A DNA stretch of 64,000 nucleotides. Source: Balanoglossus misakiensis. Its lineage: Eukaryota > Animalia > Hemichordata. Positions 4,271 to 48,964 of the stretch are shown here, piece after piece. The position numbers and the translations under genes were made by a program. Every line of letters begins with the position of its first letter. The first letter of the stretch is position 1. The stretch is from NCBI GenBank assembly GCA_040954595.2, contig CM082592.2:11872632-11936631 (forward strand), read 5' to 3'. A model generated the notes under the pieces. That model searched no databases and was not told where the DNA came from. It was given only the letters and a program-made list of their open reading frames with translations.

Positions 4271-4933
4271 CTATTTATCCTCTTCTTTCTTAAACATTTG
4301 CAGTGGGTTTTTCACACCTAAGGCATACAGTAAATATATCAATGCTAGTCCTCCCAGAAAAAGCCCAGTCTCTCCAAGAAGGAATTTATTCTCCTTTTGA
4401 TTTCTTATTTCTTCCATTTTCTTGACAAATTTCTTCCGTTGACGTCTTCGCTGTTCCTCGGCTAGCTGCTCTCCATATGTGCTTCGGTAGAACTCATCGA
4501 AATCAAACACCTTCTCCCCTCTGGTGTTGTACATTGTGCCTGTGAAGATTTTTCCCTTTTTCTGCATTGGAGCTCTGGCCGGTTCTGCTTTCACTTCCCC
4601 TCGGAAGTCTCTTGGCCCAAGGATTCCCTTGTCGTAGCGTCTCCTCAAAGTATGGTTACCAAGCACATTGTAGGCTTCGGTTATTTCAGAAAATTTCGCA
4701 CTTGCTCCGGAATCACCCTGGTTTACATCGGGGTGATAGATTTTAGACAGGGAGTAAAAAGCAGTCTTGACTTGGGCGTGCGTAGCCTTCGCAGAAATAC
4801 CAAGAACGTCATAATAATTTTTCTTGGTGCTTATTCGCGGTCTGTAAGCTTGGAGTGTACATGCACTAGTCCTGTATGGTCTTGTGGCCGTTAAACTCTT
4901 GTGCAGAGCTGAAGATGCCGTCAACTTCAACAT
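4271..4933 (-). CDS. DNAJC30: DnaJ subfamily C member 30 (mitochondrial J-protein, WBSCR18), intronless, 220 aa
   Basis: Basic/hydroxylated N-terminal presequence-like region. J-domain NYYDVLGI...KTAFYSLSKIYHPDVN...FSEITEAYNVLGN..RRRYDKG, then FDFDEFYRSTYGEQL (DNAJC30-type motif) and a C-terminal TM helix. Divergent from BUD23, as in human. Confidence 0.88.
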   Translation of the reverse strand: MLKLTASSALHKSLTATRPYRTSACTLQAYRPRISTKKNYYDVLGISAKATHAQVKTAFYSLSKIYHPDVNQGDSGASAKFSEITEAYNVLGNHTLRRRYDKGILGPRDFRGEVKAEPARAPMQKKGKIFTGTMYNTRGEKVFDFDEFYRSTYGEQLAEEQRRRQRKKFVKKMEEIRNQKENKFLLGETGLFLGGLALIYLLYALGVKNPLQMFKKEEDK

Positions 4934-5879: not shown

Positions 5880-8242
5880 ATGGCTTCCGGCAGAAGGCCT
5901 GAACACCAAGCACCGCCAGAATTGGTAATTTTTCAGGATTTTTGTTGACATTTCGCCACTTATATGATGATAGACTTTTAATTTGATTGATATACTAATC
6001 TGTTGCCGTTTCTTTCAGTTCTACAACGAAAATGAAGCCCGAAAATACACTTCAAAGTAAGTGAATAGTCTGAGACTAAACACGTGAGATGGAGTCGGTC
6101 TGTGTACGCTGTATTTTATTCTGCAGTCACAGGTTGTGAACGACGCGTGTACTAATACGGCAGCTCTGGGTGTGTAAATATTCAGTTTGAACTTGATTAG
6201 CCGAATGCAAAGCTATTCGCCGCCTGAATGCTCTCCCATTCACACCTGTTTTGATTGATGTCGTGAGTGAATTATGGTTATAAAGAGCGCCACCTAGCGT
6301 TCAAAACATATCTTAATGCAAGGTTATTGCGCACTTTAATAACCCATACAGTTTTTTTCTTGATCAATTGAATAACTATAAATCGAAATCTGTATTTTCT
6401 TTAACAGCTCTCGTATGATTGAAATACAGCAGCAGATGTCAGAGAGAGCATTGGAATTATTAGCATTACCTGAAGACACACCATGCTATATACTGGATTT
6501 AGGGTACATGTATATCAAATTTATTCCACTTCATGGTATTGCCAAAAGCACTTGCATGTATCATCCAACTCTTGTGGACACCATTTTGCATATGCTTAAC
6601 AATTGTTTTACCAAATCTTTTGTATTTTGTATGCAGGTGTGGGTCTGGTTTAAGTGGTGAAGCATTGACAGAGCAAGACCATGTATGGGTTGGTTTGGAT
6701 ATCAGTTCACACATGCTCAGTAAGTCTTACCATTCATACCTGTAACAGTCAATTATTTTTACAATGGTTTTGATGTCCAGTGTTGACAGCACTTTCTAGT
6801 TTCACGCTCTTGTTAAAATACATTTGATGATCCAAAACAGTTTGTTTCTTGGTCACAGTACCAGCGCAAAGAAACTCGATGGTTACAGTATTTGATTAGA
6901 AACAAAAACTGATATTTTTTTATTCAAACTGTGCAATTTATAGATGTAGCTGTTGAGAGAGAAGTTGATGGGGACATGTTCGAAGCTGATATGGGACAAG
7001 GCATGTTTTTCAGACCTGGAACATTTGATGGTGTCATAAGGTTAGATCACATTGCATACTGGTAATGTTTAAAACCTTAGTCAGTTCAAGAATAGAGGAA
7101 CATTTTTGACATTTAATTGTGTAAAAAAAGAGACACTTCCTACCAAAAGTCTGATAAAAACCATCAAAAGTTTTATTTTTGAATTTAAAGATAATGTTGT
7201 TTCTCAAACACATGTACATCTTTTGCTCTAGTATTTCAGCTTTACAGTGGCTCTGCAATGCCGACAAAAAATCCCACAACCCTCCAAAACGGTTATACAG
7301 GTTTTTCAGTTCACTGTATAGCTGTATGGTGAGTCAAGCTCCTGTTTCATATTAGCATAGCTATAGAAACTAAAGATCCTGGTATTGTCATATTTAGCAA
7401 ATGTCCACATTTACATACATTCACAAACCACAGCAAATACACTGTTCATCACCAGTTGTCTTTCGATTGTTTTTAACAGAGTAGAGGCAGCCGGGCTGTA
7501 TTCCAGTTCTACCCAGAAAATTCTGATCAGGTGGAACTCGTCACAAGGCAAGCTATGAAAGCGGGATTCACTGGTGGAGTGGTGGTCGATTTCCCAAACA
7601 GTTCAAAGGCCAAAAAGTGAGTACAGTGGATGCAGTGCTTACACCAAAGTTGTTAGGTAATGCTGTCTGCAGAGTAGTCTAACTTTGATGAACTATGGTT
7701 CTACGGATGTACTCATCCTTATATCTCTTTCTGTATGTGTATTCTTCATTTTCAGAATGTTTCTGTGCTTGTTTGCTGGAGGACAAGCTAATCAACAGTT
7801 ACCAAAGGTAAGGGTAGTTTGTTTATTGTTATGCTGTATCGCAGACTATTATTCAAATATTGGTTTCCCACATGCTTCATGCTAAAATCTACCCACTTAT
7901 TTAATGGTTGCAGGGGCTGGGCACAGAAGGAAAAGGCCTGCAGACACAGGTTGCCTATAGCAACTCAAGGGAAATGAGCAAAAGGAGAAAAGACCGGAAA
8001 CCGATGAAAAAATCGAGAGATTGGATTCTGGAGAAAAAGGAGAGAAGGCGAAGACAAGGGAGGTGAGTACAGTTCACCAGTATTTCAACAGGTTTCAAGT
8101 AGTTTAACAAATAGGAACAGCTTTAAAACACTGTTGGCATTAGTAAGCAAGGCCCATTCAATTTTCTTTTTCATTTCTATTTTACAGGGAAGTGAGACCA
8201 GATTCAAAATTCACAGGAAGGAAACGTCCAACAAAGTTTTAA
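5880..8242 (+). CDS. BUD23: 18S rRNA guanine-N7 methyltransferase BUD23/WBSCR22, 10 exons, 282 aa
   Basis: Exons 5880-5924, 6019-6056, 6408-6503, 6637-6719, 6944-7040, 7232-7328, 7480-7616, 7756-7807, 7914-8062, 8188-8242 (849 nt, all GT-AG). Translation: [35 protein letters not shown]...LDLGCGSGLSG (SAM motif I)...[33 protein letters not shown]...QFYPEN...[15 protein letters not shown]...[41 protein letters not shown] at 8291. Confidence 0.96.
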
Positions 8243-8631
8243 TTCTGTTGATATTGCTGCTGTATTTACAAACCAGGACATTTTGCCATTAATAAAAAGT
8301 GAACAATGCGAAACAGATTATTATTTTCCATTAAATTCCACCTTTCCATCATCAGACTGTCCCCTGAAAATGCAGCTGCATGATCTAGGTAACATCTAAA
8401 AAAATCAGTAAGTGGTACTTGTTTGTAGTGATTCTTGTGTGTAGCTTTGAGTTGCCTAGATATTTCTCGATTTAGATAACAAAATCTATTGAAAGTGTCA
8501 AACAGTTTTAATTCAGAGACTAAATAAGAAACACCAAACAATTGTATCAAAATCCGAACATTTCATCTGCTGGTTGGCAAGTCTGACAGAAGATGGTTCT
8601 GTGTACATGTGATGTACATGATTGCTTTTAT

Positions 8632-10173
8632 TTATACTTTTTGTGCTGGAACTGTCTCTAAATTAACCATGTTTGTGTCAACATCATCATCATTACTTTG
8701 TTTTCCTTTCTCATCGTATGAGAAATCCAAACATTTGACACATGGCCCACATGACAGACCACCGTTATTATCTTTCAAAAACATGGCAGTAAAGGCAGCA
8801 CAGAAAACGAAGCCCACTGAAAACCAAAAACATGCAGCAAACCCCTGTGTGGTACTGGTCGCATTGCCAACAAACTCATAGAGGGCTCCTGACACTAGGG
8901 TACCCGTCAGACGGCCAAGAGCATTTGCCATGTAGTAGAAACCAACATTCATTGCAACTTTGTCGCCCTCCGAATACTTGACGATCAGATAACTGTGAAC
9001 TGAAGAATTGACAGCAAAGATGAAAGCAAAGACAAACACCCCGGTTGTCAGCACAGCTGTCATGATGGCAACAACATCGTAATGGACGGCCGAGGAAAAC
9101 TGGAAGAAGAATGCAAGAACAGTGGGACAGCCAATCAGAATGAAACCCCACAAAGCACATGCCCACTTGTTTGCTGGGCTCTGTCGTAATGGGTTCAAAA
9201 TCAACTGTGGACTCCAACTTTGAATCTGACCATAGAGAATGATCCAGCCAGCGAGAAAGGCTCCAACTGCAGCACGTTCCCACCCCAGACCATCATCACT
9301 TCTTAGGAAGAATGGCAATGGAACTTCAAACCACAAATCTCGAGAGCCAAATAGGAAGAACCGTGCCACTGATAAAACATTCACGTTGTAATTCTTCTTG
9401 AAGATAGATTTCAATTTGATGTTCTCTTTTCTTGTTCGTCCCAAGTCTTTAGTAAGTCCACAAACGGCAAATGGAAGCGCACACAATATCAAGAAACACA
9501 TTACTCCAAGTGCCACATAGTAATGAATCATCAGCAGAGCAGATCCCAGGAAATAGCCGACACCTTTTAGTGTGTTCTTCCATCCTGTCAAGAGACTGAC
9601 AATCTTGAAGAGTCGCGTCTGTTTCTCGTCAGGCGTCACCAGCTTGGTGACAGTCTTACCACCGAGTTTGACCAAGTCTTTGGCGATACCACACAGCATT
9701 TGTGCCAGAGTGACGTAGATGATACCTGTGGATTTACTCCAGTCTTCTTGCCAGCCAAACAACATTCCAATGCCGGCCAATTGCAGGAAAAGACCAAAGA
9801 TCATCGTCTGTTTTATTCCCCAACAGGAACCAGCAACTCCAGCAATCAAATTGGTGAAGACACCAGCCAGTTCATACAATGTGAACATAATGGCCGTCTC
9901 CCATGCTGTAAAGTTCAGGTTAAACGCATGCAACAGTACAATCATGCGAACAGCTCCATCAGTCACTGTGTACAGCAAATACGAACAACTGATGATGACA
10001 AATGGCTTCAAGGCTTTATATTCACGTTGCATGCGTTCCTTTCTGGTCTCTGACCGCTCATCGTCTTTCAGTTTGTCAGTTTCTGTCTTCACTTCTATGT
10101 CACCTGGACCACCATTGTCAGGGCTTGCACCATTTTCTCCATTGCAGTCAGCCAACTTCTCTTTGCTTTCCAT
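8632..10173 (-). CDS. arsJ: MFS transporter of the ArsJ family (organoarsenical / 1-arseno-3-phosphoglycerate efflux permease-like), single coding exon, 513 aa
   Basis: Multi-TM ORF with ArsJ-type motifs in the expected order: YTVTDGAVRMIVLLH, YELAGVFTNL, GIAKDLVKLGGK, LTGWKNTLKGVGYFLG, ARFFLFGSRDLWF, WIILYGQIQ, FAVNSSVHSYLI, DKVAMNVGFYYMANALGRLTGTLVSG. Acidic hydrophilic N- and C-terminal extensions. ATG context aaaATGg. Confidence 0.88.
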   Translation of the reverse strand: MESKEKLADCNGENGASPDNGGPGDIEVKTETDKLKDDERSETRKERMQREYKALKPFVIISCSYLLYTVTDGAVRMIVLLHAFNLNFTAWETAIMFTLYELAGVFTNLIAGVAGSCWGIKQTMIFGLFLQLAGIGMLFGWQEDWSKSTGIIYVTLAQMLCGIAKDLVKLGGKTVTKLVTPDEKQTRLFKIVSLLTGWKNTLKGVGYFLGSALLMIHYYVALGVMCFLILCALPFAVCGLTKDLGRTRKENIKLKSIFKKNYNVNVLSVARFFLFGSRDLWFEVPLPFFLRSDDGLGWERAAVGAFLAGWIILYGQIQSWSPQLILNPLRQSPANKWACALWGFILIGCPTVLAFFFQFSSAVHYDVVAIMTAVLTTGVFVFAFIFAVNSSVHSYLIVKYSEGDKVAMNVGFYYMANALGRLTGTLVSGALYEFVGNATSTTQGFAACFWFSVGFVFCAAFTAMFLKDNNGGLSCGPCVKCLDFSYDEKGKQSNDDDVDTNMVNLETVPAQKV

Positions 10174-10193
10174 TTTCCACAGATGTTATTGAT

Positions 10194-10562
10194 CTGAAAT
10201 GTTACAAAATAATATAAAATTCAAGTTACTTGCATGTACAGAAATTCCTGCTTCATAACACAGGCTATTGTCCTGAATGTGCCCATGTAAAGTATAACAA
10301 CTGCCTGGGCTTTGACACGCACGCCCCCACGTGGTATCCATGTGGATCCCATATGATCATTGTTTACGCGCACAGTACAAGACCGGAATCTAAATTTCTC
10401 TCTACAAAGTGCAATGATCAAAAATAATAATGTTACAGTTTACGTCGTGGAAACATGTAGTGCGGTAATTTCATTTGCCGAGCTACTGTATCCTATTAAG
10501 TTACACTAGGTGGAAAGGCAGCAGCAAAATCACGAGCTATCTTAATACTTCAGGTAACTCAC
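10194..10562 (-). other. Predicted spliceosomal intron in the 5'UTR of the ArsJ-like gene (non-coding exon 1 ends at 10563)
   Basis: Minus-strand donor TTTCG|GTGAGT at 10563/10562 and acceptor attttgtaacatttcag| at 10194, 20 nt upstream of the ATG. Confidence 0.6.
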
Positions 10563-11263
10563 CGAAATCGACGCCAATGTTCGTTTCTGTTTCTGATCAG
10601 ATACATGTACACTGCCTTGTCCGTTTCAAGTTAACACTGTGTGTACATTGCATGTGTAAGCGACAATCACTCATATGAGCTTTCCTTTGCTGGCTGGACA
10701 ATCAAGATTGCGTAACACGCCACTTCTCACGGTGATCGTGCAAAATATAGGGTGCATCACGCGGAGAAGGGATGAATATCGGACTTATTGGTCAGGGTTG
10801 TTGGTTGGGTCGGTTGAGGTCACGCGAAGACCGCATGCGCACACTCGACAGGCGCACACTGTGTTCGTGAACTTGTAAATAATTGTGTATCTCTGTCTCT
10901 TTATTTCATGCGCAAATTTGTAGTGTAAAACATTGTGTGGAATGTGTAATATGTGCAGAGTGACACATTTGACGCGTCAGGGAGTAATGGTGGAAGATTG
11001 ACAGTAGTATCTCAGATTTTTGTATTCCATCGTAGAGGGCGCTGCTAATGCTAAATCTCTCATACTTCGCGTGGTTAGGTTTCACAGGTTAAAAGGGGAA
11101 ACAATAAGACTTTTAGTTTTACACAACCAAAATTCCAAAAATTTTCTTTTTAATAGTATCTGCATAAACTGATGTACAAAATTCGTTCATAGAAATCGAT
11201 CAAAGTATGTTACAGGCGCGACTTCAATGTATCTGTGCTGGTCCTGGTCAGTGGTCCAATTCC

Positions 11264-12259
11264 TTATGCTTGTAGGTAACCCCTGAAATATGAGATAAAA
11301 GATTTCTGCTATTAAAATCTTGGAAACAGAATATGTGGGTACATAATCTTGGCTAGACACCCTGTACATCAGTATATATAATCTGCAGCTACGGAACTTA
11401 GGCAACTGAATCCTTTATTGCAAAATGTAAGAGTTCTAACTTACGGTAACTTCATCCTCATGAAGACTCTGCACATGAAGAATGATAGGATCACACAGAC
11501 AAAACCCATGAAGAGTAACAGGAATCTGTTGAGTTTGGGCATGTTTGGAGCATTTGATTTATCCAAAATGACAAAACCGAGGCCGCCAGCTGTGAACAGG
11601 AAGCTGGAGGCAAGACCTTCCATAATGTACTGTCCATTTACTCTGTAAGGCATAAATGCAACCTGTGGAAAGAAAATATGGAAAATTCATTGGTGACATA
11701 TGGTAAGTGTTTTGTACTAGACAGCAGTGAGCTATTGAAGTTGTAGTCAAAAGGTAAGCAAATCACATACTTGCACATCACACAACTTACTGGTTTCTGA
11801 TGCCCATGTTCGTCTGTCGTTGATCCGACACTAGGGGGCTCTACAATAACATCATATATAACACCTGAAACAAAATTTAAACATAAAACCTAAACAATCA
11901 TTGATATCAGACAATTTAACTCCGCTATAAATGGAAGACTAACACCAATAAATGTTAACCCAGAAGCAGACATCCCTTCAAAACGGTCGTTTGTTTATAT
12001 GTTCACTTCAGAAGCTCTACAACCCGGAAGTTGCATACGTGTCCATTGACCCACTCAGCAACCAGCTGGTTCTCTCAGACACCAACAGCAAAGCATGCGG
12101 AATTAACATGCAAACATTACCTCCAGTGACAAGAAAATACGAGACTAATATCATGGCATAAACAACCATGGCTGATGGCATTTTCACCCATGTTGGACGC
12201 TTAAGTCGAATGTTAGGGCATTGTAGCACGGTGAATGGAACTGAGTACAGGGCCTCCAT
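11264..12259 (-). CDS. OSTC: Oligosaccharyltransferase complex subunit OSTC (DC2), 4 exons, 149 aa
   Basis: Exons 12259-12121, 11864-11791, 11662-11445, 11282-11264 (450 nt). Translation: [22 protein letters not shown]...[66 protein letters not shown]...[14 protein letters not shown]. Confidence 0.97.
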
Positions 12260-12606
12260 TTTGCTTTGGCTGGAAAAGACCGGAATCTAAGGCGGAGCGT
12301 ATTATGTACTTTGTAGTTCATATTTTCGAATAGGACACTTATGTAACTTTGCTGTTTACAGCGTAACTATGACAGATTTTCCCCCAATAAATAACTAGTG
12401 TTTTTGAAATTATAAATAAAGCCCAATCGTTATTTTTTAAGGTTATTCTGACGTTTATTTTTTACTTTTTATTAAGAATCAGTGTATAAGAATATTAGGC
12501 CTTGAAAAGGCTTCCACGATTGATCACGCGTGAATACGGTGAGATTGCAAAATGTTGTTGATGGAAAAAACCGTAGGACTGCCAATGTGAGTCAGTCGTT
12601 ATCAAC
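12260..12606. promoter_or_regulatory. Probable bidirectional promoter shared by OSTC and SFSWAP
   Basis: Only 347 bp separate the two divergent ATGs. AT-rich core (about 12390-12495) flanked by CpG-containing segments, with palindrome TCACGCGTGA at about 12524-12533. Confidence 0.6.
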
Positions 12607-15600
12607 ATGGCTCTGTTCGTGAAGAACAAGCAGAAGAGAGCACAAATTGTAGATAGAAAGCACGTAGAAACGGCCAAATCCCGCGAAGAAGAACTCGATG
12701 AACTCTTTGTCTTTGGGTACGCGGCAAAGTTGTTCCATGATGACGAGAAGGCAATTTACATTGACAAGGGAAAGCATTTGATTCCATGGATGGGAGACAC
12801 AACTTTGATGATCGACAGGTCGGTATAACACTGTTTCTTTGGGGTTTTTCCTATGCGCACGTACTCCGACTGACATGTTGGGAAGAGCACAAAGAAACGT
12901 CCTGTACTGCAGTGAAGCAGTGCATCGACTAACCGAGGGGCGAAGTTGTTACTGTTTTTTTTTCTTTCAAAAATCATCATCACTTCTGAGTGTGAACGCT
13001 GATCTCGTTGCCGATTGGTTGAAAGGGTTTGCGGAAACAATGCAACCAGCTGCTTGCGATTTTGACAAGTCGCTAAAATTCTTTTTCGGCAACACAGTCC
13101 TGCAGCTGGAAAGAAACACTGCATTCCATTGTTTATACGGCGTATTCTTGCAGAGTATTGTTTAATTTGTGGTAAAATATCTTGAGAAGTTCACCTGGGT
13201 CTGTTCCGAGTCGCTTTTGTTTTTCGCTGATGTCCATTGCATGCTTGGTGGCTCACTGCACCAGCGGCCGCACGACCCGGCTTTTTCACCTGTGCTATGT
13301 TATTATGGATCGACGGTGTCAGAAAATGAATTATTTGAAGCATTAAAGAATTGAGAAGTTGTGTATGCTTGAATTGAATATTTTTTTGGCACAGCTATAT
13401 ATTGATCGGCGCATGAAGTAGTGCGGGTACAGCTTTGGTCAATATCAAAACAACTTATCATTCATTGCGCTATAAACTTGTGATTGAGGTGTGAAGGAAA
13501 TGTAAATTTCCTTCCGGAAAACAGTTACCATGATTAACTTACATTTAATTAAATTAAAATTGTGATAACAATTGAAGCAGCACAATCAGAAAACGTGTTG
13601 GGGTTGGGATAATATTGTTTACACAGTGACTTTGGGGGGTGGGGGGTTGTCTTACCAGATTTTCAAGAATCATTCCAATTTTGGAAGTGCACAGTATAGA
13701 TAGTCTATTGCATATTTGCAGATTTAAAAATTCATCACTATAGCGAACGTACCCACCAGGTACCGGGTCAAGGTAAAGTACTTCAAAACTGTGCATAATA
13801 ATCACTAAAACAATTTTATGCTGTGTTCAGTCACTTATTTTACTGTCTGTTTTTTTTCACCTTACCAACCTCAATGTCTCCTGCAGGTACGATGGGCGTG
13901 GACATTTACATGATCTTTCCGAGTATGACCTTGATGCTTGGAACAGAGAATACAGATTATCCGAGGAAGAGGCCCGGATAGAAGCCTTGTGTGATGAAGA
14001 GCGGTATCTGGCACTTCACACAGATCTCCTTGAAGAGCAACATCGGCAAGGTATGGGGAAAATGAGAAGGATTCATAATAGTTATATATATTGTAGCAGT
14101 TTCTGATTTCGTTACTCAATCGTAGGAGAGAGTGAAGTCTATCTGACAGATTCCAGTGATTATTATCAAAAGACGGTGAAATCACAGTTGGAATCTGACC
14201 TCAGATAGAAATAAACCAACTTTCTTATCTCTAGACTATATTTACTGTAAACAGTTATCGAACTGTATTTTGTAAATACCGCCCAGTATTTGGACTAATG
14301 CCATCATTGTTGCTGTACACAATGCTAAGTTACTTGTTAAGAGAAATTGAAGATTTTATTCTAGTGATGCTTTCAGTGTTGAATCACCGACAGACAAGGG
14401 TGTGTTTGACACATGATTTGTATAAAGCACGCCTCCTATCACGTATTAGAGCAGACATTGTACAGCTATAACATTACCATGGTCCAAGGTTGCTGTGACC
14501 TCACCCTGATAGCATCAAGGTGGTGGAAATTTCCACACATCAGGCAGTCCCAAAATTACAGTAGTTTTTAAAGATTCAAATCATTGTTTTAAAACAATGC
14601 CACATTTAGAAATTTAAACAGGCTGAAAAATGAATTAAAAGGCTAATGTTATAGTATGTAAATGTTATAATTGTCTTGCTATTGTTATTCAAATAAGCTT
14701 ATTATATTTTAGTGTGGCACGTTTTGGCCTTGAAATTGCACAATTGGCTGTTAGGTATTGATCCCAATGCATTCTGTATACAACCTTCTTGTCATCTGTC
14801 TTTAAACATGCGAAAATGAATTGCTTTCAAAAGTTATGCCTAATGGAGATTATCATTGTAAACCCATCTCAATTTATTCCGGCATTACTGACGCAAGATG
14901 GCTTTTAATTTTAAACTGCCCACAGAACTTGATGAGAGTAATATAAAATTGAGCGTATAAAATGACTTACAACACTTTCCTACTGAATGCTTGCAGCATA
15001 CAGTAACATATTGTTCGTATAATTCTGCCCATGGTTTCTGTGAGCTTGAGCGGAGTTTAAAAGAAAGTTGTCCCTGCCAGCTGTTTGCAATGTGCCAAAC
15101 ATCCATGCAAAAGTCCTGTGGGAAAATTCTGTTGAACAGACTCGGCCAACATAACAATCTAAGCTGGCAAGGTGCCCTTTTTTTCACAAGTGGTTTCTCC
15201 ATTAGACAGGATTTGTGAGTTTCTTCACCTTGCATCTTGCTCAGCATCTTGTATTCATTTGACAGAGGTCAAAGGTTACACTTTACGGGCACGCACCCCG
15301 TTGCAATGCCAGTGAACCAATTCATGTAGTTATATTCTTATGCACCCAGTGTGTCTTGTCACTGTCAGTTTGGATTGAAACAAGTTGGCTGTTTATTTGC
15401 AGTGACAAACCTTTTCCAAATACATCACCATACACTGTGAAATGAAAAGAATACAAGAAAATGTCAGGCCTTGAAAATGTTAGGGACCTTTCATTGGTGA
15501 ATGGCACAGTTCCAAGAGATCTTCGCTAAGATCTTTGATGTTCTTTTGGGAGGTGATTGACATGTATGTTCAATAGCCTGGTGTAAGGCAAGGGTCCTCG

Positions 15601-18600
15601 CATACATGTGTAACTAATTATGAAATATGAAACTTATGTTGACAAGGCAAATACTGAATATCTATGTACGTAGTTTAAATAGTCATGTCAAGTAGCCATC
15701 TGTTTAGTGCCGTAAGGAAGATTGACAACTGCGTTTCGTAATATTATGCTGAGTGTACAGTTTGCTTTCATTAGAAGGCTCCTCTCTCGCATGTTTTTTG
15801 TCGGATTGTTCCAATTTGAAGATATTTAAGTTTAACAGGTGTCACCTCTGCCTTTATGGCACACACGCACACACTGGTTTGTGCGTCAGCAATACGTGTG
15901 ACTGTGTGTATAAACTACAGCTGTTGGCTACTGAAAAATAAAAGTTGTAAATGACTTGTCAATCTCTGAAATCAAAGACATTGTGGGGAAATGTCCTTGC
16001 ATCAAAGAGAATCATCGTGCATTGCCTACTTTTACAGTTGTTGAAGTTAATAACCTGATATAAAACACAAACTGAAGACTTTGTGTTGTCAGAAATATGA
16101 GAAGGTTAAGACTTTGATTTTCGAGGTGCATATCAACCTTACAGCAGATCCGGCACAGCATGTAATGATGATTGATTTCATTTCCTTTTTGCTCTCTTGT
16201 GCAGAGGAAGAGTTGAAGAGACTGAACGAAGCCATAGCTGGCTCTGAAGATAATTACCAAGCAGTGGGATTCAGCTATGATGATGCACCCTCATCCAGTT
16301 ATAATGCCAGCTATGATCCTACGCAACCGACCGATGATTACGAAGATGATGCAAATAAAGAAAATCAAGGTATTGTGTGAGATTTCGACCATTCTTTGTG
16401 ATTGTGTGATTGTTCGTTTTATGTTACAGCTTGCAGACTGAGAAGCTCCTGTGGTAGGTTGTCACTAGCATGTACACTTCATTTTGAAAAAAGACTCTCA
16501 GCTTACATCTGTGGATTTTCAGTGAAAATAACTGATGATAGCTTTCTTGCTCAGTTGTAAATTTCACTGAAAATAACGCATCATTTATTGCGTTGACATT
16601 TGATGCTAAAGTCCAGGGGTTTCACAAAAGCAAGAAGCAAATGGAATCATCCGACTCTTGAGAATTTTCATTTTTTTGGCAACTTTCCCAAAAATGTCCA
16701 GTGAGCCCTTGTTTTTCTTGAGACCCTGGGAATTTTGGCATTTAATGCAAAATGTTTGTCTGCCAGAAAATTAATTCATTATGACGTAACAGGCAAGGTG
16801 ATTATTATGTAAAAGGCTTCTAATCTATGTTACATGGTCAAATATCTATTCTTTAGCGAAAAAAACTAAACTTATATGTTACATAACTGCACAAGAAGCC
16901 TTATAAGAAAATTATACAAGCTATGTAGATTTTCAAAATTGTCAAAGTAACTTCAGCTTCTCAGATGCTAATTACTGATATCAAGACCACAACAATTCAG
17001 CACTGATGTTCGTACATGTAGCTACTGTCATTGGTTTATGTTTCTGTAAACAAATGTGAACTTGAAGTACCCAATGTTTTGATACTTCACATTTGTTTGG
17101 AAGGGATACTCTGATAAAAATCCCTCCCTCACAGTCAAGTTTCACCTATAAAAAGAAGTATGAACCTCAGGTAGGCAATGTTTTGATACTTGAAAGCATT
17201 GTTTTATAAGGAAACTCCAGATAAGATTCCTCCAAACAATGGTTTCTCCTCAGGGGAAGATATTCCTCAGCCCTCAAGACCCACTAATACGATTATCTCA
17301 TCCATGGATAAAAATATTTGCATAGTCATCAATGTGTAGATTCTATCGTTTGGATCACAGTTTGGAATTTCACCATCTTCCTAATGGATCTCTATATTCA
17401 TTTCTATTGGCAAACACCCCAAATACATAAACTGAATGCTTTGGGACTCCGGAGTGACCGTGAGTGACTTCTGACTCATTTGAAAACCTGGGGAACGTAC
17501 ACAGAATAGATATCTATTCAGATAGATACGGGACATCTGTTTTCACACAGTTTGACAGTTGTACACACAATGTCCAAGATGAATGCCTAAAAAGCCCTTA
17601 CAATATGGTGACCTTCTTGCGTGTCCACCTTATACAAGACCTGGAAGCTAAACTAAGAGTAACATTGAAGTAGGATTCAACCATTTACATTTGTATGCAG
17701 GGGTGGGAGACCAATGCCCTTTCTACCTTGAACTGGTTTCATGTTGAGATCTAAATAGCTTGTTTGTGTAATGGTCTCCACACGTGTGTGCTAGTATGGG
17801 ATCTTACCCAATTGTCAAACTGAGAGTTTAGGGTAATTAACGTCATTGATAAGGAAATGAAAGCAGGTCTTGCAGAATAAGATTTAGAAGAACAATTCTT
17901 AGCTTGAAGGTGGATATTTGCATCTTTCATTATACACCCACAGTAAGAAAGTAGAGAATGTTTATAGACTAGTTTGAACTGATCCCTGGGGTATGGATTA
18001 TGGAGGTAGCCTCTGGGGGTGAAGATTTTGGAGGTAGCCTATGGATAGTGTCTACAACCCATGTCTGCTCATGTACGTCCACATGCCAAAAAGCATGTAT
18101 GTGTAGAGTACACAACCATACTGACATTCCCCATACATCCAATCCTTAGGTCCACGTTGCGCTTTGAGCTAAAATTATTTTGCTGAATCATACACTTTTA
18201 AGTACAAGAGACATGACCTTTGATCTGTGACCTTGTGATCTTTATGAAACTAAGCAAACTATCATTCATGCAAGTACTTGTGAAGGGGTGGTTGACATCA
18301 GTACTAATGATGTACCTTAGCCAGACGGCCTTATCAATGAAATTCCTGTGGTTTTCAAGTGATAAACAACTGATTTTACCTATCAAGGGTAGCCATTGGT
18401 TCCTGTTTGTACACACAATGAAAACCATGGTTTGTGGCAAAAACCACTGGATTGTCCACAAGGATTTATATCACAGACAGGAGAAAAGTCTCCCATTCTT
18501 CTATTGTACGTCTTTGATACATGTACATGTATGTCAATATCGTATTTGAGATTCATGTTATGATGTATATCAGTATCGTATCATGATGCTCCCTTTTGCA

Positions 18601-21600
18601 GTTCACAACACTTGAGGAAGATTTTAAAAAAAAACATGGAATTCTACAGTATCTCTGTCATCTGTACTTCATTTGCAAATTAAACCACGAGAAAGGAAAG
18701 TGTATTCACCATCTTGTATTATTCAGAAAAAAGCAGGTATGATTCAGCCTGTTGCCATAGAGACCACATCACACATGGAGGCTATTTAGACCTCTGAGAT
18801 AATTGATTTAATAAATTCTAAGATTTGACTGATGAACATTGCTTCAAATAGAATATTAAACGAAGCACAATATTGACCGAAAAATTGAGCAGTTAAACAG
18901 TCTACTATACAACGCCATTTGTATTTGTCAGATGGATCTAAGTTTAGAACCGCTTCAAACTGGCGGGAACAGGAATATTGAAATTCCTGAACCCGCAGTG
19001 AAGACCACTTACCAGCATTACTCTGAAGTTGATAGCTTAGAGTATCAATACAAAATATCTCTGGATTTCACAAAATTATATACATCTGTATGTAATGCTG
19101 GCATTATCCATACAGTTGTCAAACGGGCCCCTCTGTCCTCTATAGGAAATATTTCACTGAAAGTGAAACACATCCATTTCATAAGATTTTGTAAAGCATG
19201 TTTCATCAATGCTTTCACAGCATTTCTGACTGTCCTGTGTTCTACTGCCAAAATCAGATCAATCTCTCTGCCGCATCTGATGAAGATGCCTGAAACTACC
19301 AGACTACTTTCTGATTTCTCATCGCCTTGCCATCTTCTGGCAACAGTTTGTAATTCCATGAAAGTTGACATAAAGTGTTTAAATTTCAAGTACCATTGAA
19401 AATGAGTAAATATTTAACGGGTACTCAAAATAGGTTATTCATTGAATATACAAAGTGGGGACAGCACAGAGGGCTACATCACATGTTTTGCAAGAAGGAT
19501 ACACCTTAACCCAGATTATTGCATTGTATTCAAATTAAAGAGAATCCTGTGGCGTTCCTGTGTGGACTAATTTAGAACAAAAACATGAAGTCAGTAAACT
19601 TTACATAAGTATTTTGCTCCTTACACCTACAAATCAGATAAAAACCCCAAATGATCTGATTTCAGTGCAGGGAAAAGAAGGGAGGTGCCGTTTGAAATGT
19701 TAAACAGATCTGTGTTTTGCATGGCATGACTGCAGTACTCCATCCCACTGTGACAGGATTTTTTTGTGACAAGTTTTTCGTGCATCCATACATGAAATGA
19801 CAAGACTCTGAAGTGAAAGACTCTCTGTAATGAGACTGGCTCAAAGAAAGTTCTACAATTCCAAACATTTTCCAAAAAGTCATGTTTGTTTAAAGGGCAC
19901 CCATTGCACATCCGTCTGCAGATGTTTCATTCGATATCGACTGTGTGTATGTGTGGTTTTATCTGCTTTCAACCCAGCCAGACTTCAATTCCCACAGGGA
20001 AACGCTTGCTAAGTTCTCTATATAATGGTTTGGCTGTGTTTAAATAACACCCGATGACTTCTGTGTTAGTTTTGGCAAAAACACATTTCTGTGGCATGAC
20101 TGTGCAGAGGTAAACATGTCAGTCAGGTTTAGGGAAGGTCAACCTGACATTGTGCATGAAATGATAGCCGTTATTGTACCAGGGTACATTGACACAATCT
20201 CGTAGATCAATTATTGCTGCATAAGTAATGCAGTTAAGGGGACAAGTCTGACAGCTGACCTGATTTTCTCTGACTTGTGTGTACAGATGTCATACAGCAG
20301 TGTGAATGAATGGCGAGATGATTATGAAAAATTCTCAAACTACGCGAGAGCCAAAAAAGCGAAAATAAAAAGTCATTTAATAATGTTTTTTCGGGGATAA
20401 TGATGCAGTGAAATACGAAAACGTGAAAATTAAACGTTGCATAACAGTTGCCGCTATTGATATTGCGAAAATTTCCTGTTGCAAAAATTTCCCGTTTTTA
20501 CATTACTAGTAAAGCATGTTGATAACATGTTTGTTTCATTTTTTCTGTACAAGGTGTTGTAATTTCCAAAATTGGCGTTGGAGGGAGAATAGAGTTAGTG
20601 TCAGAATATCACTGTCCACAAATTAATTACTTGATCAGTAATGCGTAGAACAGCATTGCTCAGCTGTTGCATGGAGCGTGTAGAGACAGCAATGCTTAAA
20701 ATGCTGCATAGCGCTTCATGTACTCTTCTGTGACTGGCTTTCAACTAATTATAGGTGTACTGTGACCTGGCATGGTCTTCTCACACTGTGTGTGCGCTAT
20801 CGAATCATGCTGACATCATAACAGTTTTTGTTGGACCACATTGCGCTTGCTTGGTGGTTTGCCCAGTGTGCGTTTGGAGCCAGCTGTTCTTGGAACAAAA
20901 CCATCTTTTGGAGGTGTTAGTCCCGACATTTGTCAAATATTTACCCACGAAAATAAATTCACAGTAATAATGAGAACATCTTCTTGTGCAAAGTAAAAAA
21001 AATTTGTCAGGTCAACCATATTGATTAATTGCGTTAATGTATTGTTCCTGGTAGGTTAATGGCGGGAATATCCGGGAATATCCGAGTGAAATGTCACCGG
21101 TAAATTTCACTTTGTGAGCACTCACTGTTGGTATTTTTAGTGAAAATGTATTCACCTGTCATCATACATGTAGTACGATTTTTAGAACATGTCCAGATAT
21201 ATCCTAATGACAAAACTTCACTTTGTTTTTCTCATCATGTTACAGAAGAAGAAGATAATCCTATCGGAGAGGATGAGGAACCATTTGTGGCACCAAAGGA
21301 ACTGGAATTGCCCAGCGATATGGAAGTGGTAAGAAGGACTTTTAATGATCTCACTTTTTTATGTATTGTACTTTCAGTTATCGTGTGATAAAAGAATAAT
21401 GGAAGAGATACATATACAGTAGTGGTATTTCATGATGCTTCCAGTCTTGGGGTTTCAACTTACAGCAGCATTGAATTAAGTTTAAATTACATGTTACGTT
21501 CTGCATGTCAGAACAGATCAGCTGTTTCCTGAATCATTGATTGGTTTTCATGGCAGCCAGGACTGTTTAGTGCAAATGCTATACCTCCTTTATATCTCTT

Positions 21601-24600
21601 GAAAACTCGGCTCAATCATTGAATGTTTTTTACAGGGTTTGACCATGCGAGAGAGTAAAATATACTTCTTTTTTTCTTTCCAGCCTGCGACAGTAAAGAC
21701 AAACGCCATCATTGAAAGGACGGCCATTTTTGTCATGACCAACGGTCCACAATTTGAAATTATTCTGAAAGCCAAGCAATCGGGGAACTCTCAGTTTAAT
21801 TTTCTCGACTTTGAACATTATCTGAACAAATATTACAGGCACGTTTTGAAGTACATCAAATCAGGCAAATACAAACCAAAGTCAACAGATTCAAAAGGTA
21901 AATGAATGTTTCATTCCTGTAATTTTTCTGCTGCAAAAATTGTCAGAGTTGTTGTTACAGGCTTTTTCAAATTTGAGTCGTAGATTTAAATTGTTCGACC
22001 TCCAATGCACCTCATCAGATACCCCAGAGAATAATCACCGTAAAGCAAGCTGTGATGACGAAAGTAGTTGCCATACCGACGATGAAGAAGAGAGCGATGC
22101 AGACAGCAGTGGTTATTTACATCCGAGTTTATTGACATCCAGGAAGACAAAATCACCAAAGGTAATATGAATGGGTTGCGTGTGTAAAGCTTTGTCATAA
22201 TTCTAGCCCTAAAATTCACATATTTTTGCTCCCTGAAATTCTTCTCATGAAAAACAGTACCGTCTAAAACTTGCAGAAAATGTAAACCTTTCATCCTATT
22301 CCATTCTGTAAAGGTCCAACATTATTTATATTAATAGAAGACAGTGGATTCAAAGTTTTATTACTGGTTGCAGTGTATGTTACTTGCTAGTATTTGTTTT
22401 CTGTGATTCCAAAAGTTGACTTGATGCCCTGTTTCTTTTTCCAGAAAACAGATGCTCCACCGTGGCCAAGCGGGACACCTCTACCAACACAAAGTGTCAT
22501 TACAGCTGTAGGAACTTCCAGTGCTCTGCTGGGGCCGGTCTATGGACCAATGCTGCCAGGATTACAACTTCCACTTCTACCTCCTGCAGCCAGTACTACT
22601 GCAAACTCAGGTGAGTGTTGCTGGCCTGTCATCACAGACAGAGAAATATCGGCGGGTGGGCAGACATGAATGGATGGATGGACTTGCAGATTGAAACCCA
22701 TATCATCTAACTGCAACAGGATTACATCCTTTAACCCTTTCACCCCCCCCCCCCCCCCCTCCCTCTTTAGAGGTCCAACCTTACCATTAAAAAACAATGG
22801 GTTTGGACTGAACCACGGTGGTGAAAGGGTTAAGCAATCAAGACCATCCCGGTGATGACTTGTCCATTTTCCTCCGTCTATTGAAGGAAACAAGTTACAG
22901 TTTCAAAGTTAACAACCTTATCAGATATGCATGTATTCAAAGCATAATACAGCCATGTTTATTTGTTTGTTTGTTTTTGTTTCAGGGACCACTACTGCGC
23001 CAATTTTGCCGCCACCAATTCCCCCCTTTATTGGGGTTGCGCCAGATGGCAGTGCTGTTGTACCTCCCCCTCCCCAGACAGTACCTCCAACAACAGTCCA
23101 TGTAAATACGCTGTCTTCATTTACTGCTGCTCAACCAGCCTTGTCAGGGATTTCGGCTCTGACTGCCACGCCCCCTCCCCCACCCCCAGAAGACAACCCC
23201 AGTGCAGTTGCAACCACTAGTGCAAGGTAAGAAGTGTTAAATTAGTGAAAAAAGTAGTCAGAGGTGATAGTACTTGTTTAACTTCCTCAGAAATTGATGA
23301 AGCATGCTAATAAATGTTTCTTATTTGCTTCCAGTGCCCAGGCAATTCCTACAATAGTCCCCCCTCCCCCAGATCTTCAACCAGTCATTGACAAAATGGC
23401 CAAGTACGTGGCCAAGAATGGGGTGGAGTTTGAGGCAACCGTAAGAGCCAAGTCAGATCCTAGGTTTGAATTCCTCCTACCTTGGCATAGTTACCACGCC
23501 TACTATGAATACAAGAAGAAACTTTTTATTGGGGAATTCGGCAAAAAGATAGAAGATGAACCTGAGATGCACTCAAAGAAAGGTATTTATCAGCTGAGCT
23601 TCAATGTGATTTGCATAGCTATTTAATGTTCATATTGGTGGTGGTAGTATAGTTGTGGAAGAACTACTATGACTTGGTAATTTCTGCTGGTTGGCTAAAT
23701 TTTACATCACTGTTAAATTTTCATATGTCAATCATTTTATTTCCAGCCCGGGGTCCGGTCTCCTTTTCCATTAAAAGCAAAGACTCCGATGACCGGGTGT
23801 CGGAATCCAGGTGCACATTCCCGGTGGAGAGCAGCAGTGACTCTGACGGAGAAAATGTGGGAAAGAGTGATGAGAAATACAACCCGTTTATGTTGCCTGA
23901 GATGTCCGGTGGAGAGAAGCAGTCGGATAAGAAGAAACCACAGCTTTCACTTGAAGAATTAGAAGCCAGACAAGGTAAGGAAGGAATCAAGGTTTTTGTG
24001 TGAAAGAATTTGTGGAGATAATAGATACATGCTACTGTTACACATCCACTTTCGTTTTAAATTTCACGGATGTTGGTGGAATTGTAAGAGCTGCATACCA
24101 GACTACATTGTACACACAGACACACTGGAACCTGTTTCAGGCCATTTCTCTGTCAGTATAAGTAACGTCCAGGTTTTGAATCCTTAAATTTTAGTCGGTT
24201 TTATCGATGATATTGGCCGAGGATGGTGGGTGTTTAATTCACTTATTTGGTTTGTTACTGGCAGCACAGTTTTCATCGAGCTGATCTTTATTTGAGGATT
24301 GCTCATTTTACAGAAAGGCTTAATCTTAAGTCAGGCTTGCCACAGACAGACTGATCTAGGTATATACACTGGAAAAAAAGTCTCCATCTATACATTGGCA
24401 GAAGGCATGTTTGCAGGCCTAGAAGGATTTACAATATCATGACAAAGGTCAAACCAGCCCATACTCTGGTGATCTGAATATCTGTGTCATGTTAGGTCAT
24501 AAGAACGAGAATGTTGTGCCACATTAGTCCAGGCAAATATCTATTGACATCGTTGATAATACCAAACATTTCATGATGCAAAAACTATTTAGCTTTTTTG

Positions 24601-39200: not shown

Positions 39201-41318
39201 GTCCTTGAAGCTGGTATTTCTGTACACAATGGATTTCCCAAAATCGCAACCTGTGACAAACGTGTCCCCAACAACACACCACTGAAACAAAACAAACAAT
39301 ACAAAATAACTTGTCAATCAATCAAGCAAAACAAAGAAAAACTTTGATAGATATACACAATACCAACATGTCATTCTGCAAAGGACAATCACAAGCCAGG
39401 GTCAAGCGAAAGGGGCATTAAACTCAAACAGTTGAACACATCACATGATATTCGGAACAAACATAACAGTACAAAGATTTGCAAGATAAACAAAATCTAC
39501 TCAAAATTTGAAATGCCAGAATGATAAGGAAACATACATCATTGTTGATACCACATATTTATATTTCATATCAAACGCCACTTTTAGTTGTCCATTAACT
39601 CCAACTGACCTGTGGCTCACCCCAGAGAGCCAGTACCTTCCCAAGATCATGAATGAGACCTGTGAGATGGAACCAGTCTTTATCTGGATGTCTTTCACGG
39701 ATCCTTTCGGCTGTCTGGTATGCGTGGTAGATATTTGGAACATCAACCTGGAAATACAAAAGCATGCAGTCAAACAGTCTCTGATGCAATACACTCTGTA
39801 TATGATCCTTTACATGTTGGATATTATCTCTTCCCAAGTCCTGTTACCTAACCCTTCTAAGTTGATATCATTTTATCGTGAACAATACATGATGCCTTGC
39901 CCTGTTGAATATGGTGTTGTAATACCAGCAAATCATTTCAGTAGTAACATGTGACAACACTGTCAATGCATTTCATACCATTTACACCAAATTTAGATAT
40001 TGACTCTGACTTAAAATATACTTACATCAGGATCGCTTTCATCGATGACATTATTGAGGTAGTCCAAAGCTTCCATGATGTTCATCTCTGCCTTGTCCAG
40101 TTTGCCCCACTGCTCATGCTGTGAAAATACAAAGACAAATGAATTCACCACCTGAGTGAGTGCTTGCCAGCTGCAGTTGAAAAACACACCATGCTGATTT
40201 CAACAATTCATCCAACAAATCTTAAGTTATGCCAAAATATACTAATTCACCGTCCCATATTTTTAATTATTCTGAAACCATGGTCACATGCATATTTAAG
40301 GACTAGCGGAGTTTACCTTGCCCAGGACAAAGTCATGGGTCTGGAATGTGTGCATCAGCCGATATGTTTCCCGAACACGTTCCATGTGGGTGTCGCCCGT
40401 TGTTTCTTCCTAATTTTCAACAGAAATACATATGTTTAGAATTAAGAATAAGCATATGATGGTGATTTTTGGAATTTAATCAATTCACTGTCAAGTTAAA
40501 ACTAGAATAACACCATTCTGCTAGTGGGGACATTAAATTTTTTAAGCACATTAAATTCTTCTCCAATGAAGCCTTTATTGGTGGCATAGATTCCCAATGT
40601 GATATAAAGCACTGATTCATGATTGAATTTTTCTGTTAGAGGCCAACTTAAATTCATCATGCCATGGTCAACCCATGTTAGATGCACAATAACCACCATT
40701 ATTTGAGGATAAAAATAACCTGGGTCAAGTTCAACACCAAGGTCAAAACTGAGAGTGGCAATCACCAACACGACAGTGTACGCATGCTCCGGGTTTATGC
40801 TATTCTTCAGAGGGAAGTACGCATGTCTGCCTCGTGGAGTGAATTCAATTGTTCACGATCTCCGCTAGCCACCCCCATGTTCGAGAACGCAAAATCAAAC
40901 TCCAAACTGCAATTTAGGGGAAATGATAATACCTCGTGATAATTTCTAAACTCTTCTTTCGTTTTCTGGGCCTCGGGTTCAGGCCTGTACAGTTCAGACG
41001 GATCAATCATGTTCACTTGTTCCTGAAAAAGAAATGAAAATTCATATCAGTAACTTTATAGAGAAAATGCACACGTATGTCCTAAATGGAGAATCGTCGA
41101 GTTATACGACCAGATTCGCACGTATTGTCGTTTTAAAAATATTAGGAACGCCATTCGCTGTACATGACACTGTCACTGAACGGCGCGGTCGATCGAGGTG
41201 ACATCAATATCAACAAAGGCCGTCACCAACACTACGTGACGCACGGGTAATGAAATGTACATTAGTAAAAAGGAATTTTGCCCCAAATTTCGATCGCACA
41301 ACCCACTTCACTTACCAT
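36209..41318 (-). CDS. MIOX: myo-inositol oxygenase, 10 coding exons, 288 aa
   Basis: Exons 41318-41316 (ATG only), 41022-40933, 40409-40317, 40118-40026, 39747-39610, 39281-39172, 37882-37815, 36895-36846, 36711-36599, 36317-36209 (867 nt). Motifs: [61 protein letters not shown] (HD di-iron), [56 protein letters not shown]. Minus-strand AATAAA at about 35640-35645. Confidence 0.95.
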
Positions 41319-48831: not shown

Positions 48832-48963
48832 ACGATTTTTCGACTTTACAAAATTTCTTCATTTTTTGAAAAAAATCATGGGTTATAGCTCATGAAAATC
48901 GTCAAAAAATGACAATTTTTCGACTTTGCGAATTTTCAAAATTTGGTCATTTTTTGAAAAAAA
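48832..48963 (-). repeat. About 1.5 diverged satellite monomers in inverted orientation at the array boundary
   Basis: catgggttatagctcatgaaaa and tttttcgactttgcgaattttcaaaatttggtcattttttgaaaaaa are reverse complements of parts of the 87-bp monomer. Confidence 0.85.
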
Positions 48964-48964
48964 C

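Follow-up and report, generated by a model that had tools for sequence, protein, structure and literature searches.

An ArsJ-like transporter gene of algal affinity in the acorn worm Balanoglossus misakiensis

ArsJ proteins are major facilitator superfamily (MFS) transporters and have been characterized in bacteria and in Chlamydomonas. The bacterial systems include the gapdh-arsJ pair of Pseudomonas aeruginosa DK2, the var operon of Vibrio, and the mfs2-gapdh genes of Halomonas. There are two published models for what is exported. The Pseudomonas model is one of strict GAPDH dependence (PMC6205960, PMC5930303), while in Vibrio cholerae resistance depends mainly on arsJ, whose product is reported to export free As(V) (PMC9601151). 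In Chlamydomonas, ARSJ (Cre07.g354150) lies in an ArsJ-GAPDH3-PGK3 neighbourhood (Foflonker and Blaby-Haas 2020, PMC7826186). The ARSJ mutant is described there as arsenate-sensitive, which makes this a eukaryotic ArsJ that has been tested genetically. ArsJ and GAPDH3 occur together or are missing together in green algae, which suggests dependence on the partner (PMC7826186). Cyanidiales retain arsJ without the cluster (PMC9812998).

One acorn-worm protein has already appeared in this literature. Saccoglossus NP_001171775.1 is an undiscussed tip in the arsJ tree of Cho 2023, where it is listed among green algae and apart from Capsaspora and fungi (PMC9812998 Suppl. Fig. 14), and the arsJ passage in the main text does not mention it. 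Among the papers listed by literature searches, one of which covered 25 of 1,581 listings, none deals with an animal ArsJ. An earlier sequence-only reading of the locus described here was not aware of such an arsenate-efflux route being characterised in animals; the presence of the gene in an animal was already published as the Saccoglossus tip (PMC9812998). The gene of Balanoglossus misakiensis is located in a 64,000-nucleotide stretch of DNA, all of which was analysed and is called the window, and it adds a further species or population to three carriers of acorn-worm orthologs.

The ArsJ-like protein and its locus

The arsJ gene is an intronless open reading frame (ORF) of 513 aa at 8632–10173 on the minus strand. 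It has no internal stop, and a pseudogene is rejected. The ATG at 10173, with the context AAAATGG, is the first start because an in-frame TAA lies 4 codons 5' of it; the stop-to-stop frame ends at 10185. The sequence-only reading described an intact ORF carrying a full series of ArsJ-type motifs and assigned it to the ArsJ family, and all three points are borne out. The six quoted motifs are found at residues 71, 164, 195, 273, 389, and 410, and the sole NCBIfam match of the protein is NF033734 (MFS_ArsJ), with an E value of 6e-118 and 394.4 bits across profile positions 3–390 of 392, which is far beyond chance. A search of Pfam returned the generic MFS_1 only. Assignment to a different MFS family is rejected; the MFS_ArsJ match is full-length and ranks ahead of other MFS families.

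There is a small discrepancy between this match and the curated equivalog, whose whole-protein cut-off of 400 bits was set for prokaryotes and lies 5.6 bits above the score of the protein. The orthologs of Ptychodera, Saccoglossus, and Glandiceps score 407, 399.2, and 394.9 bits, Chlamydomonas ARSJ scores 378.5 bits, the two outer eukaryotes scored (Corallochytrium and Synstelium) reach 343 and 393 bits, and four bacterial-type proteins reach 558–604 bits. Ptychodera is the only one of the 12 eukaryotic rows scored that attains at least 400 bits. Since the cut-off set for prokaryotes is missed, and Chlamydomonas ARSJ misses it too, the protein is classed by its sequence as eukaryotic ArsJ-like rather than placed strictly within the bacterial equivalog. 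Additionally, an ORF with a GAPDH motif was found at 66 of 80 prokaryotic homolog loci, nearly always directly upstream, so that the matched family is the gapdh-linked ArsJ.

The protein features 12 predicted transmembrane helices at about residues 44–463, flanked by variable N- and C-terminal tails; arsJ is likewise given 12 TMs in a published supplement (PMC9812998). The AlphaFold model (pLDDT 86.4) matches MFS structures. Foldseek retrieved generic MFS proteins only, at 11–17% identity, and neither a solved ArsJ structure nor a sequence homolog in the PDB was found, so the substrate is not readable from the structure. The ESM Atlas returned eukaryotic MFS clusters with no animal taxa, one of which is auto-named organoarsenical efflux. 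Fifteen charged residues are common to bacteria, algae, and all four acorn-worm rows: D72, R76, E101, K165, D166, K169, K173, K177, K199, K203, R271, R278, D279, H393, and R421. Ten of these are Lys or Arg, and most are located in helices 1, 4, 5, 7, 10, and 11 of the AlphaFold model, the helices that line the cavity in MFS proteins. In addition, of the 124 columns with 95% or higher conservation across 78 prokaryotic ArsJ sequences, the protein keeps 95, compared with 91 in Chlamydomonas.

The neighbours of arsJ in the window are BUD23, OSTC, and an SFSWAP-like gene. The 3' part of BUD23 occupies 7230–8572 on the plus strand and converges on arsJ, and OSTC lies upstream of arsJ at 11144–12274 on the minus strand. 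One BUD23 exon matches PF12589, and two OSTC exons match a PDB OSTC chain with E values of 2e-38 and 2e-19. In sequencing run X3, seven GT-AG joints coincide with BUD23 and OSTC introns, and a spliced contig extends to 8572 in BUD23. The run is labelled "DNA?", and the splicing at these seven joints indicates that it is probably RNA. Its contigs cover BUD23 and OSTC and none falls on 8573–11143, a blank that is evidence in neither direction. The position between two spliced animal genes that was first read from the sequence is confirmed by these exon matches and joints.

Around the ORF, a candidate poly(A) signal, AATAAA, at 8627–8632 on the minus strand overlaps the stop codon in the tail-to-tail arrangement with BUD23. 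A 369-nt GT-AG intron in the 5'UTR, at 10194–10562 on the minus strand, is plausible from the sequence. Its donor, G|GTGAGT, agrees with 3 of 7 confirmed donors, and GT[AG]AG sites occur twice in the 960 bases scanned, about the chance expectation. For pyrimidine content its acceptor is third among 24 YAG sites, with a score of 8, confirmed introns ranging from 7 to 11. The region at 10563–11000 on the same strand may contain a non-coding first exon and the promoter; its CpG observed/expected ratio is about 1.0, compared with about 0.5 in the arsJ ORF.

Affinity to algal ArsJ and origin of the gene

The closest homologs come from three acorn worms in three genera, Saccoglossus kowalevskii (NP_001171775.1 / ALR88600.1), Ptychodera flava (XP_070572795.1), and Glandiceps talaboti (XP_077984814.1), at 73–78% identity. 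None of these is called ArsJ in the databases, and the S. kowalevskii protein is named "major facilitator superfamily-like". Algal proteins follow at up to 65% identity, and bacterial homologs reach about 45%, the prokaryotic rows in the alignment being at about 41–45%. The best 120, 120, and 150 matches of the searches, most of which are unnamed, include no other animal by name; the shorter-protein search gave the best 120 of 1532 and the 50% representatives the best 150 of 2406, and names were looked up for 20 proteins picked from the match lists. Absence of the gene from echinoderms, amphioxus, and pterobranchs is suggested.

The careful phylogenetic tree used 47 of 261 rows, each required to cover at least 340 of 416 core positions. 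The four acorn-worm rows form one clade (support 100/100) that falls inside the algal ArsJ group, together with Chlamydomonas ARSJ and other algae (100/99). In 31 signature columns the acorn worms have the state of algae and not that of bacteria, and 0 columns show the reverse. The C-terminal DxxGGLxCG motif is present in 4 of 4 acorn-worm rows and 69 of 117 top non-animal matches. The corresponding counts are 0 of 13 for outer eukaryotes and 0 of 78 for the prokaryotic rows, which were trimmed to the aligned region. Approximately unbiased (AU) tests, for hypotheses named after the trees were seen, rejected grouping of the acorn worms with bacteria at moderate significance (p 0.023), and with Corallochytrium (p 9.5e-5) or its four-row clade (p 6.5e-4). 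Direct transfer from bacteria is therefore rejected, moderately. No supported sister or donor lineage was found inside the algal group in any tree, and its backbone is unresolved.

Membership in the algal subfamily makes algal transfer the leading interpretation and, judging from the sequences, the likeliest origin, with fair confidence. The donor would be a marine alga, plausibly food, and the transfer would have preceded the Saccoglossus-Ptychodera split, dated to more than 370 Ma (PMC4729200). The sequence-only reading had offered horizontal transfer or patchy retention from an earlier eukaryotic lineage. Transfer is favoured, by an algal route that was not listed; nesting within bacteria is rejected at moderate significance, and retention is not favoured in view of the rejected Corallochytrium groupings.

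A possible but less probable origin is ancient paralogy, in which early eukaryotes already had two ArsJ subfamilies, and the one retained by algae was also retained by acorn worms while other opisthokonts lost it. ArsJ-like genes are widespread, occurring in fungi, Capsaspora, Corallochytrium, and a dictyostelid (Synstelium), which indicates that the family is old in eukaryotes and makes hidden paralogy possible. The AU test also does not reject a sister position of the acorn worms to the algal rows as a whole (p 0.32), and the algal backbone lacks resolution. However, paralogy requires many independent losses. No opisthokont other than the acorn worms is named in the algal group, either in these trees or in the published tip list, which is the source of the Capsaspora and fungal names. 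The same holds for further animals among the matches listed above, and identity to algae, at up to 65%, is far above the 44% to the Corallochytrium homolog. Paralogy bears only on where the gene came from and does not conflict with arsenate export.

Proposed function and the role of GAPDH

Phosphate carriers let arsenate into cells, and this would be its route into those of the acorn worm. The Lys/Arg-lined cavity of the transporter would then bind the oxyanion and export it, most likely as free As(V). 1-Arseno-3-phosphoglycerate (1As3PG) from ordinary glycolytic GAPDH could supply the pump, either once hydrolysed or by serving as a second substrate, and no dedicated partner enzyme would be needed. 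Arsenate export by the acorn-worm protein is thus predicted from its sequence with a modest lean in its favour. The whole explanation, a host-encoded ArsJ of the algal subfamily that passed from an alga into an acorn-worm ancestor and pumps arsenate out, is evenly poised.

A search of the 64-kb window by tblastn with ars-type GAPDH found no GAPDH (best E 1.2). Pfam scans of 57 and 62 ORFs/exons, which covered most but not all listed ORFs, found no ars gene, and no PGK domain occurs among the ORFs scanned. The absence from the window that was first read is upheld for gapdh and, among the ORFs scanned, for other ars genes. The locus accordingly has neither the dedicated gapdh in an ars/pho context that marks the bacterial systems nor the GAPDH3 and non-canonical PGK that adjoin arsJ in green algae. 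A search with a 70-aa algal GAPDH3 exon gave 8000 matches, the best 120 of which include no hemichordate by name, in a list that algae saturate.

This separation of arsJ from its GAPDH and PGK partners would also fit a repurposed transporter, kept for another anion, with arsenate export incidental. The proposed substrates are phosphate, a phosphorylated metabolite, or dietary algal organoarsenicals. The basic cavity should suit phosphate-type substrates equally, and the strong purifying selection over 370 Myr that is evident in the 73–78% identity could reflect a routine role. Repurposing is nevertheless unlikely: the family-wide charged residues are kept at 15 of 15 positions, with no loss at the charged positions examined, and columns invariant in bacteria are as well conserved here as in the tested Chlamydomonas protein.

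There is additionally a strict model, in which the protein exports only 1As3PG and depends on glycolytic GAPDH or on a co-transferred, unlinked GAPDH3. It follows the Pseudomonas work and is in keeping with the GAPDH at 66 of 80 prokaryotic loci and the co-occurrence of ArsJ and GAPDH3 in green algae (PMC7826186). Rabbit glycolytic GAPDH is reported to have been the enzyme in the original in-vitro experiments (PMC9601151), and an animal GAPDH can therefore make the substrate. The same paper, however, reports for Vibrio no extracellular 1As3PG and no extra 3PG, accumulation of As(V) of about 20x in the arsJ mutant compared with about 3x in the GAPDH mutant, so that the one does not phenocopy the other, and a glycolytic Gap that favours phosphate (PMC9601151). 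With no gapdh in the 64-kb window either, the strict model is improbable. The sequence-only reading had suggested that the animal may couple the transporter to its own glycolytic GAPDH. Obligate coupling of this kind is one of the two published models, and since Vibrio ArsJ reportedly exports free arsenate (PMC9601151), GAPDH coupling is doubtful. The acorn-worm gene, with no dedicated GAPDH in the window, bears on the dispute between export of free arsenate and of 1As3PG.

Host assignment and comparison with known systems

That the gene is both an ArsJ-family member and a host gene is close to certain. Contamination or a chimeric assembly with algal or bacterial DNA, for which the intronless ORF, the lack of a single contig bridging BUD23 to OSTC, and the chance that run X1 is the source of the window DNA might be cited, is rejected as extremely improbable by orthologs in the genomes of three acorn worms, each assembled independently (contigs of 27 and 44 Mb carry two of these orthologs), an X1 depth of 64.8 on arsJ against 58–65 on long flanking contigs, a host-like GC3 (46% compared with 45% in two intronless host ORFs), and allelic variants that keep the reading frame. 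Among the listed X2 alleles, the membrane core has 7 synonymous changes versus 1 conservative change (P 2e-4 to 1e-3). The NP_ accession of the Saccoglossus copy points the same way, presumably having a curated transcript behind it by RefSeq convention. With the spliced neighbours, these results sustain the original argument against a contaminating bacterial contig.

In general, animals deal with arsenate through reduction, methylation, and thiol conjugation, and sediment-feeding acorn worms that pumped As(V) out directly would be using a different route. As a candidate eukaryote-to-animal transfer, retained over 370 Myr or more, the gene is also well supported, and its algal affinity contrasts with the homolog from a unicellular relative of animals. 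A similar pattern has been described for the "deuterostome novelties", hemichordate genes closest to those of micro-algae or bacteria that are attributed to deuterostome-stem transfer or repeated loss (Simakov et al. 2015, PMC4729200). The main text and two supplements mention neither MFS proteins nor arsenic (PMC4729200). The pattern is the same, but among the animals named in the matches listed, arsJ was found only in enteropneusts and not across deuterostomes. An "algal-like MFS transporter" is said to be included in Extended Data Table 1 / Supplementary Note 10 of Simakov 2015, and that supplement may already list the arsJ gene as an algal-like transporter.

The acorn-worm locus is a known family in an unexpected host, and its novelty is bounded by the work on bacteria and Chlamydomonas and by the Saccoglossus ortholog in the published tree. 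Compared with the ArsJ of Pseudomonas, Vibrio, and Halomonas, the protein belongs to the same family over the full profile and shares the 15 charged residues and 95 of 124 conserved columns; it differs in its identity of about 41–45%, its score of 394 bits versus 558–604, its longer tails, and a locus without an operon, ArsR, or adjacent gapdh. The proteins of outer eukaryotes, Corallochytrium (Clim_evm16s109) and Synstelium, joined in the published tree by Capsaspora and early-branching fungi, belong to the same family on separate branches. With Chlamydomonas ARSJ the protein has 61% identity over 465 aa and shares the subfamily signatures, including the C-terminal DxxGGLxCG; the acorn-worm gene differs from this green-algal locus in having no GAPDH3 match in the window and no PGK domain among the scanned ORFs, and in being carried by an animal.

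The arsJ gene and its locus

The arsJ ORF occupies positions 8632-10173 on the minus strand and encodes 513 amino acids in a frame with no internal stops, as the sequence-only reading had described, and all six of the motifs quoted there are present in the protein. The sole NCBIfam match is NF033734 (MFS_ArsJ), which spans nearly the whole profile (E 6e-118) and upholds the proposed ArsJ-family assignment, though its 394.4 bits lie under the curated cut-off of 400 bits. Pfam returns the generic MFS_1; on the ArsJ model, the window protein outscores Chlamydomonas ARSJ. In every sequence test the protein behaves as an ArsJ.

The gene is the animal's own. The top three of 4821 homologues are acorn-worm proteins: that of Ptychodera flava is 78% identical, that of Saccoglossus kowalevskii 75%, and that of Glandiceps talaboti 73%. 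They come from separate assemblies, two of them lying on contigs 27 and 44 Mb long. The window protein is sister to that of Ptychodera in the careful 47-row tree (support 100/96), and on this gene tree the window probably comes from an enteropneust. The GC3 of arsJ is 46%, compared to 45% in two intronless host ORFs. In sequencing run X1 the contig depth is 64.8 on arsJ and 58-65 on long flanking contigs; this is taken as supporting evidence only, since X1 is possibly the source of the window DNA and the locus is not covered by any one contig. Within the ORF, the listed differences between run X2 and the window come to at least 13 sites, and X2 carries two insertions of 3 bases each. Among those sites, the membrane core has seven synonymous differences and one conservative one (V266I); random changes there would be non-synonymous in 71-77% of cases (excess of synonymous changes, P 2e-4 to 1e-3). 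The tails have four non-synonymous differences out of five.

The neighbours BUD23 and OSTC proved to be spliced animal genes, as had been claimed: PF12589 is found in a BUD23 exon, the OSTC chain in the PDB aligns with two OSTC exons, and run X3, which is spliced and probably RNA, has contigs that skip seven GT-AG introns within the two genes. Between the 3' ends of BUD23 and arsJ, an X1 contig of about half depth omits 163 bases (8437-8601), which is likely a heterozygous deletion. The candidate 5'UTR intron (10194-10562, minus strand) combines a good donor with a passable acceptor, but neither exceeds what chance would give, and it leaves the protein unchanged because an in-frame stop lies upstream of the ATG. 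An X2 contig agrees with the window rightwards from 10191, next to the proposed splice acceptor, and its arsJ side consists of at least 255 unrelated letters, possibly a repeat or insertion allele.

The window also features an intronless DnaJ-domain gene (4271-4933, minus) and an SFSWAP-like gene (12577-23626, plus), whose exons encode DRY_EERY and two Surp domains; a CpG-rich stretch separates it from OSTC, to which it lies head-to-head. Myo-inositol oxygenase exons (37732-39843), SLC6/SNF transporter exons (45927-47805), and an intronless NAT8-like GNAT acetyltransferase (42241-42933) are all on the minus strand; the last was rejected as an ars gene, its ArsN1 match being weak (29.7 bits against a cut-off of 170). 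The final 15 kb are taken up by an 87-bp satellite array (48950-63883; ~170 copies, 98% match); one of its strands is open through many units, and the resulting repeat ORFs, as long as 599 aa, are spurious.

Homologues and origin

Next after the acorn worms, at 49-65% identity, are proteins of green and red algae, haptophytes, and diatoms, and the prokaryotic homologues compared reach 45% at most. Three homologue searches (best 120, 120, and 150 matches, most without a name) named no further animals. A 261-row FastTree, quick IQ-TREE analyses (78 and 47 rows), and the careful 47-row tree all agree in placing prokaryotes on one side (100/100) and eukaryotes opposite. The four acorn-worm rows form one clade (100/100) inside an algal group (100/99), outside of which are long-branched eukaryotic proteins, including one of Synstelium polycarpum and Clim_evm16s109, whose Clim_evm prefix belongs to Corallochytrium limacisporum (bioRxiv 2020.11.12.379420), a single-celled relative of the animals. 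All four acorn-worm rows agree with algae and differ from bacteria at 31 signature columns; the opposite pattern occurs at 0. Pavlovales haptophyte sequences (the P0016 cluster and P0065) are split between two positions in the algal group, which hints at more transfers among algae or at mislabelled records. An 872-aa long-branch ArsJ-like protein (P0143 / P0282) from the red alga Compsopogon is possibly a fusion.

The AU hypotheses were picked after the trees had been inspected. Monophyly of the acorn worms with Corallochytrium (p-AU 9.5e-5) and with a 4-row Corallochytrium clade (p-AU 6.5e-4) was rejected. Nesting within bacteria, an origin raised by the sequence-only reading, was rejected with moderate significance (p-AU 0.023), the rows grouping with algae. 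The data are compatible with the acorn worms being sister to the algal rows as a whole (p-AU 0.32), and the trees give no supported sister within the algal group.

The Saccoglossus ortholog is already in an arsJ tree by Cho et al. 2023, whose main-text arsJ passage leaves it unmentioned (PMC9812998). In the tip list of Suppl. Fig. 14, compared by the order of its names, one end is taken by Capsaspora together with chytrid, blastocladian, and glomeromycete fungi; the sole metazoan tip, Saccoglossus NP_001171775.1, lies between Mesostigma and chlorophytes (PMC9812998). These positions indicate an old eukaryotic family with an acorn-worm copy of algal type, for which this tree is independent support. 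No paper discussing ArsJ in an animal was found among the matches listed; the breadth across enteropneusts, the explicit origin tests, and the caveat on mechanism are new here. An algal-like MFS transporter is reportedly in the supplementary list of Simakov et al. 2015. That study describes a class of hemichordate genes that marine micro-algae also have, and a Saccoglossus-Ptychodera split of >370 Ma (PMC4729200). The simplest reading, which we consider probable, is transfer from an alga before that split; ancient paralogy, which would take many losses, is the rather less likely alternative.

Predicted function and known systems

The model of the window protein has a 12-helix MFS fold (pLDDT 86.4); its Foldseek matches are generic MFS proteins at 11-17% identity, and sequence search returned no solved structure for any ArsJ relative. 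The protein keeps 95 of 124 near-invariant columns of 78 prokaryotic ArsJ (Chlamydomonas, 91/124) and 15/15 charged residues common to bacteria and algae, 10 of which are basic, and helix 4 features an i/i+4 lysine stripe (K165, K169, K173, K177). By analogy with MFS architecture, the conserved basic residues may line an anion-binding cavity. Beyond the last helix is a C-terminal DxxGGLxCGPCxxC motif (residues ~466-482; window 8740-8790, minus) that recurs in many algal ArsJ and in none of the outer eukaryotic rows; speculatively, its cysteines might be lipidated, or bind arsenic or metal.

The window protein is 61% identical to Chlamydomonas Cre07.g354150, whose insertion mutant is described as severely impaired by arsenate (PMC7826186). 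This identity, the higher ArsJ-model score, and the conserved residues make arsenate export the best guess for the predicted function, with moderate confidence. The substrate form of ArsJ is disputed. In the Pseudomonas model ArsJ exports 1-arseno-3-phosphoglycerate (PMC6205960, PMC5930303, both second-hand), whereas the Vibrio study reports arsJ as the main determinant, did not see exported 1As3PG, concludes that free As(V) is expelled, and states that rabbit GAPDH was employed in the Pseudomonas assay (PMC9601151). Neither model would oblige an animal to have a dedicated partner for ArsJ, and arsJ is reported as kept alone in Cyanidiales (PMC9812998). Against partner-free use stand GAPDH at 66/80 prokaryotic homologue loci and the green algae, which reportedly have both ArsJ and GAPDH3 or neither (PMC7826186).

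Export of free As(V) is favoured as the putative mechanism, and a stand-alone arsenate exporter of algal origin is a possible, though less likely than not, description of the protein. A repurposed anion carrier is unlikely. GAPDH-dependent export, including the suggested coupling to the animal's GAPDH, is unlikely too, and the Vibrio conclusion argues against it. GAPDH was looked for in the 64-kb window and none was found, in agreement with the sequence-only reading. In intron-rich algal metagenome contigs (L084, L086, L087) GAPDH3 adjoins arsJ, which fits the published green-algal cluster, and two loci with intronless algal-type arsJ (L081, L082) have no GAPDH match within the locus DNA searched.

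The arsJ described here is a real, conserved gene whose family is known but whose host is unexpected; it is likely an algal transfer, and its function is putative. It is not filed with the green-algal three-gene neighbourhood, and since, unlike the bacterial ArsJ system, it scores narrowly under the bacterial cut-off and has no gapdh pairing, it is filed as a member of a eukaryotic, algal-type ArsJ-like subfamily.
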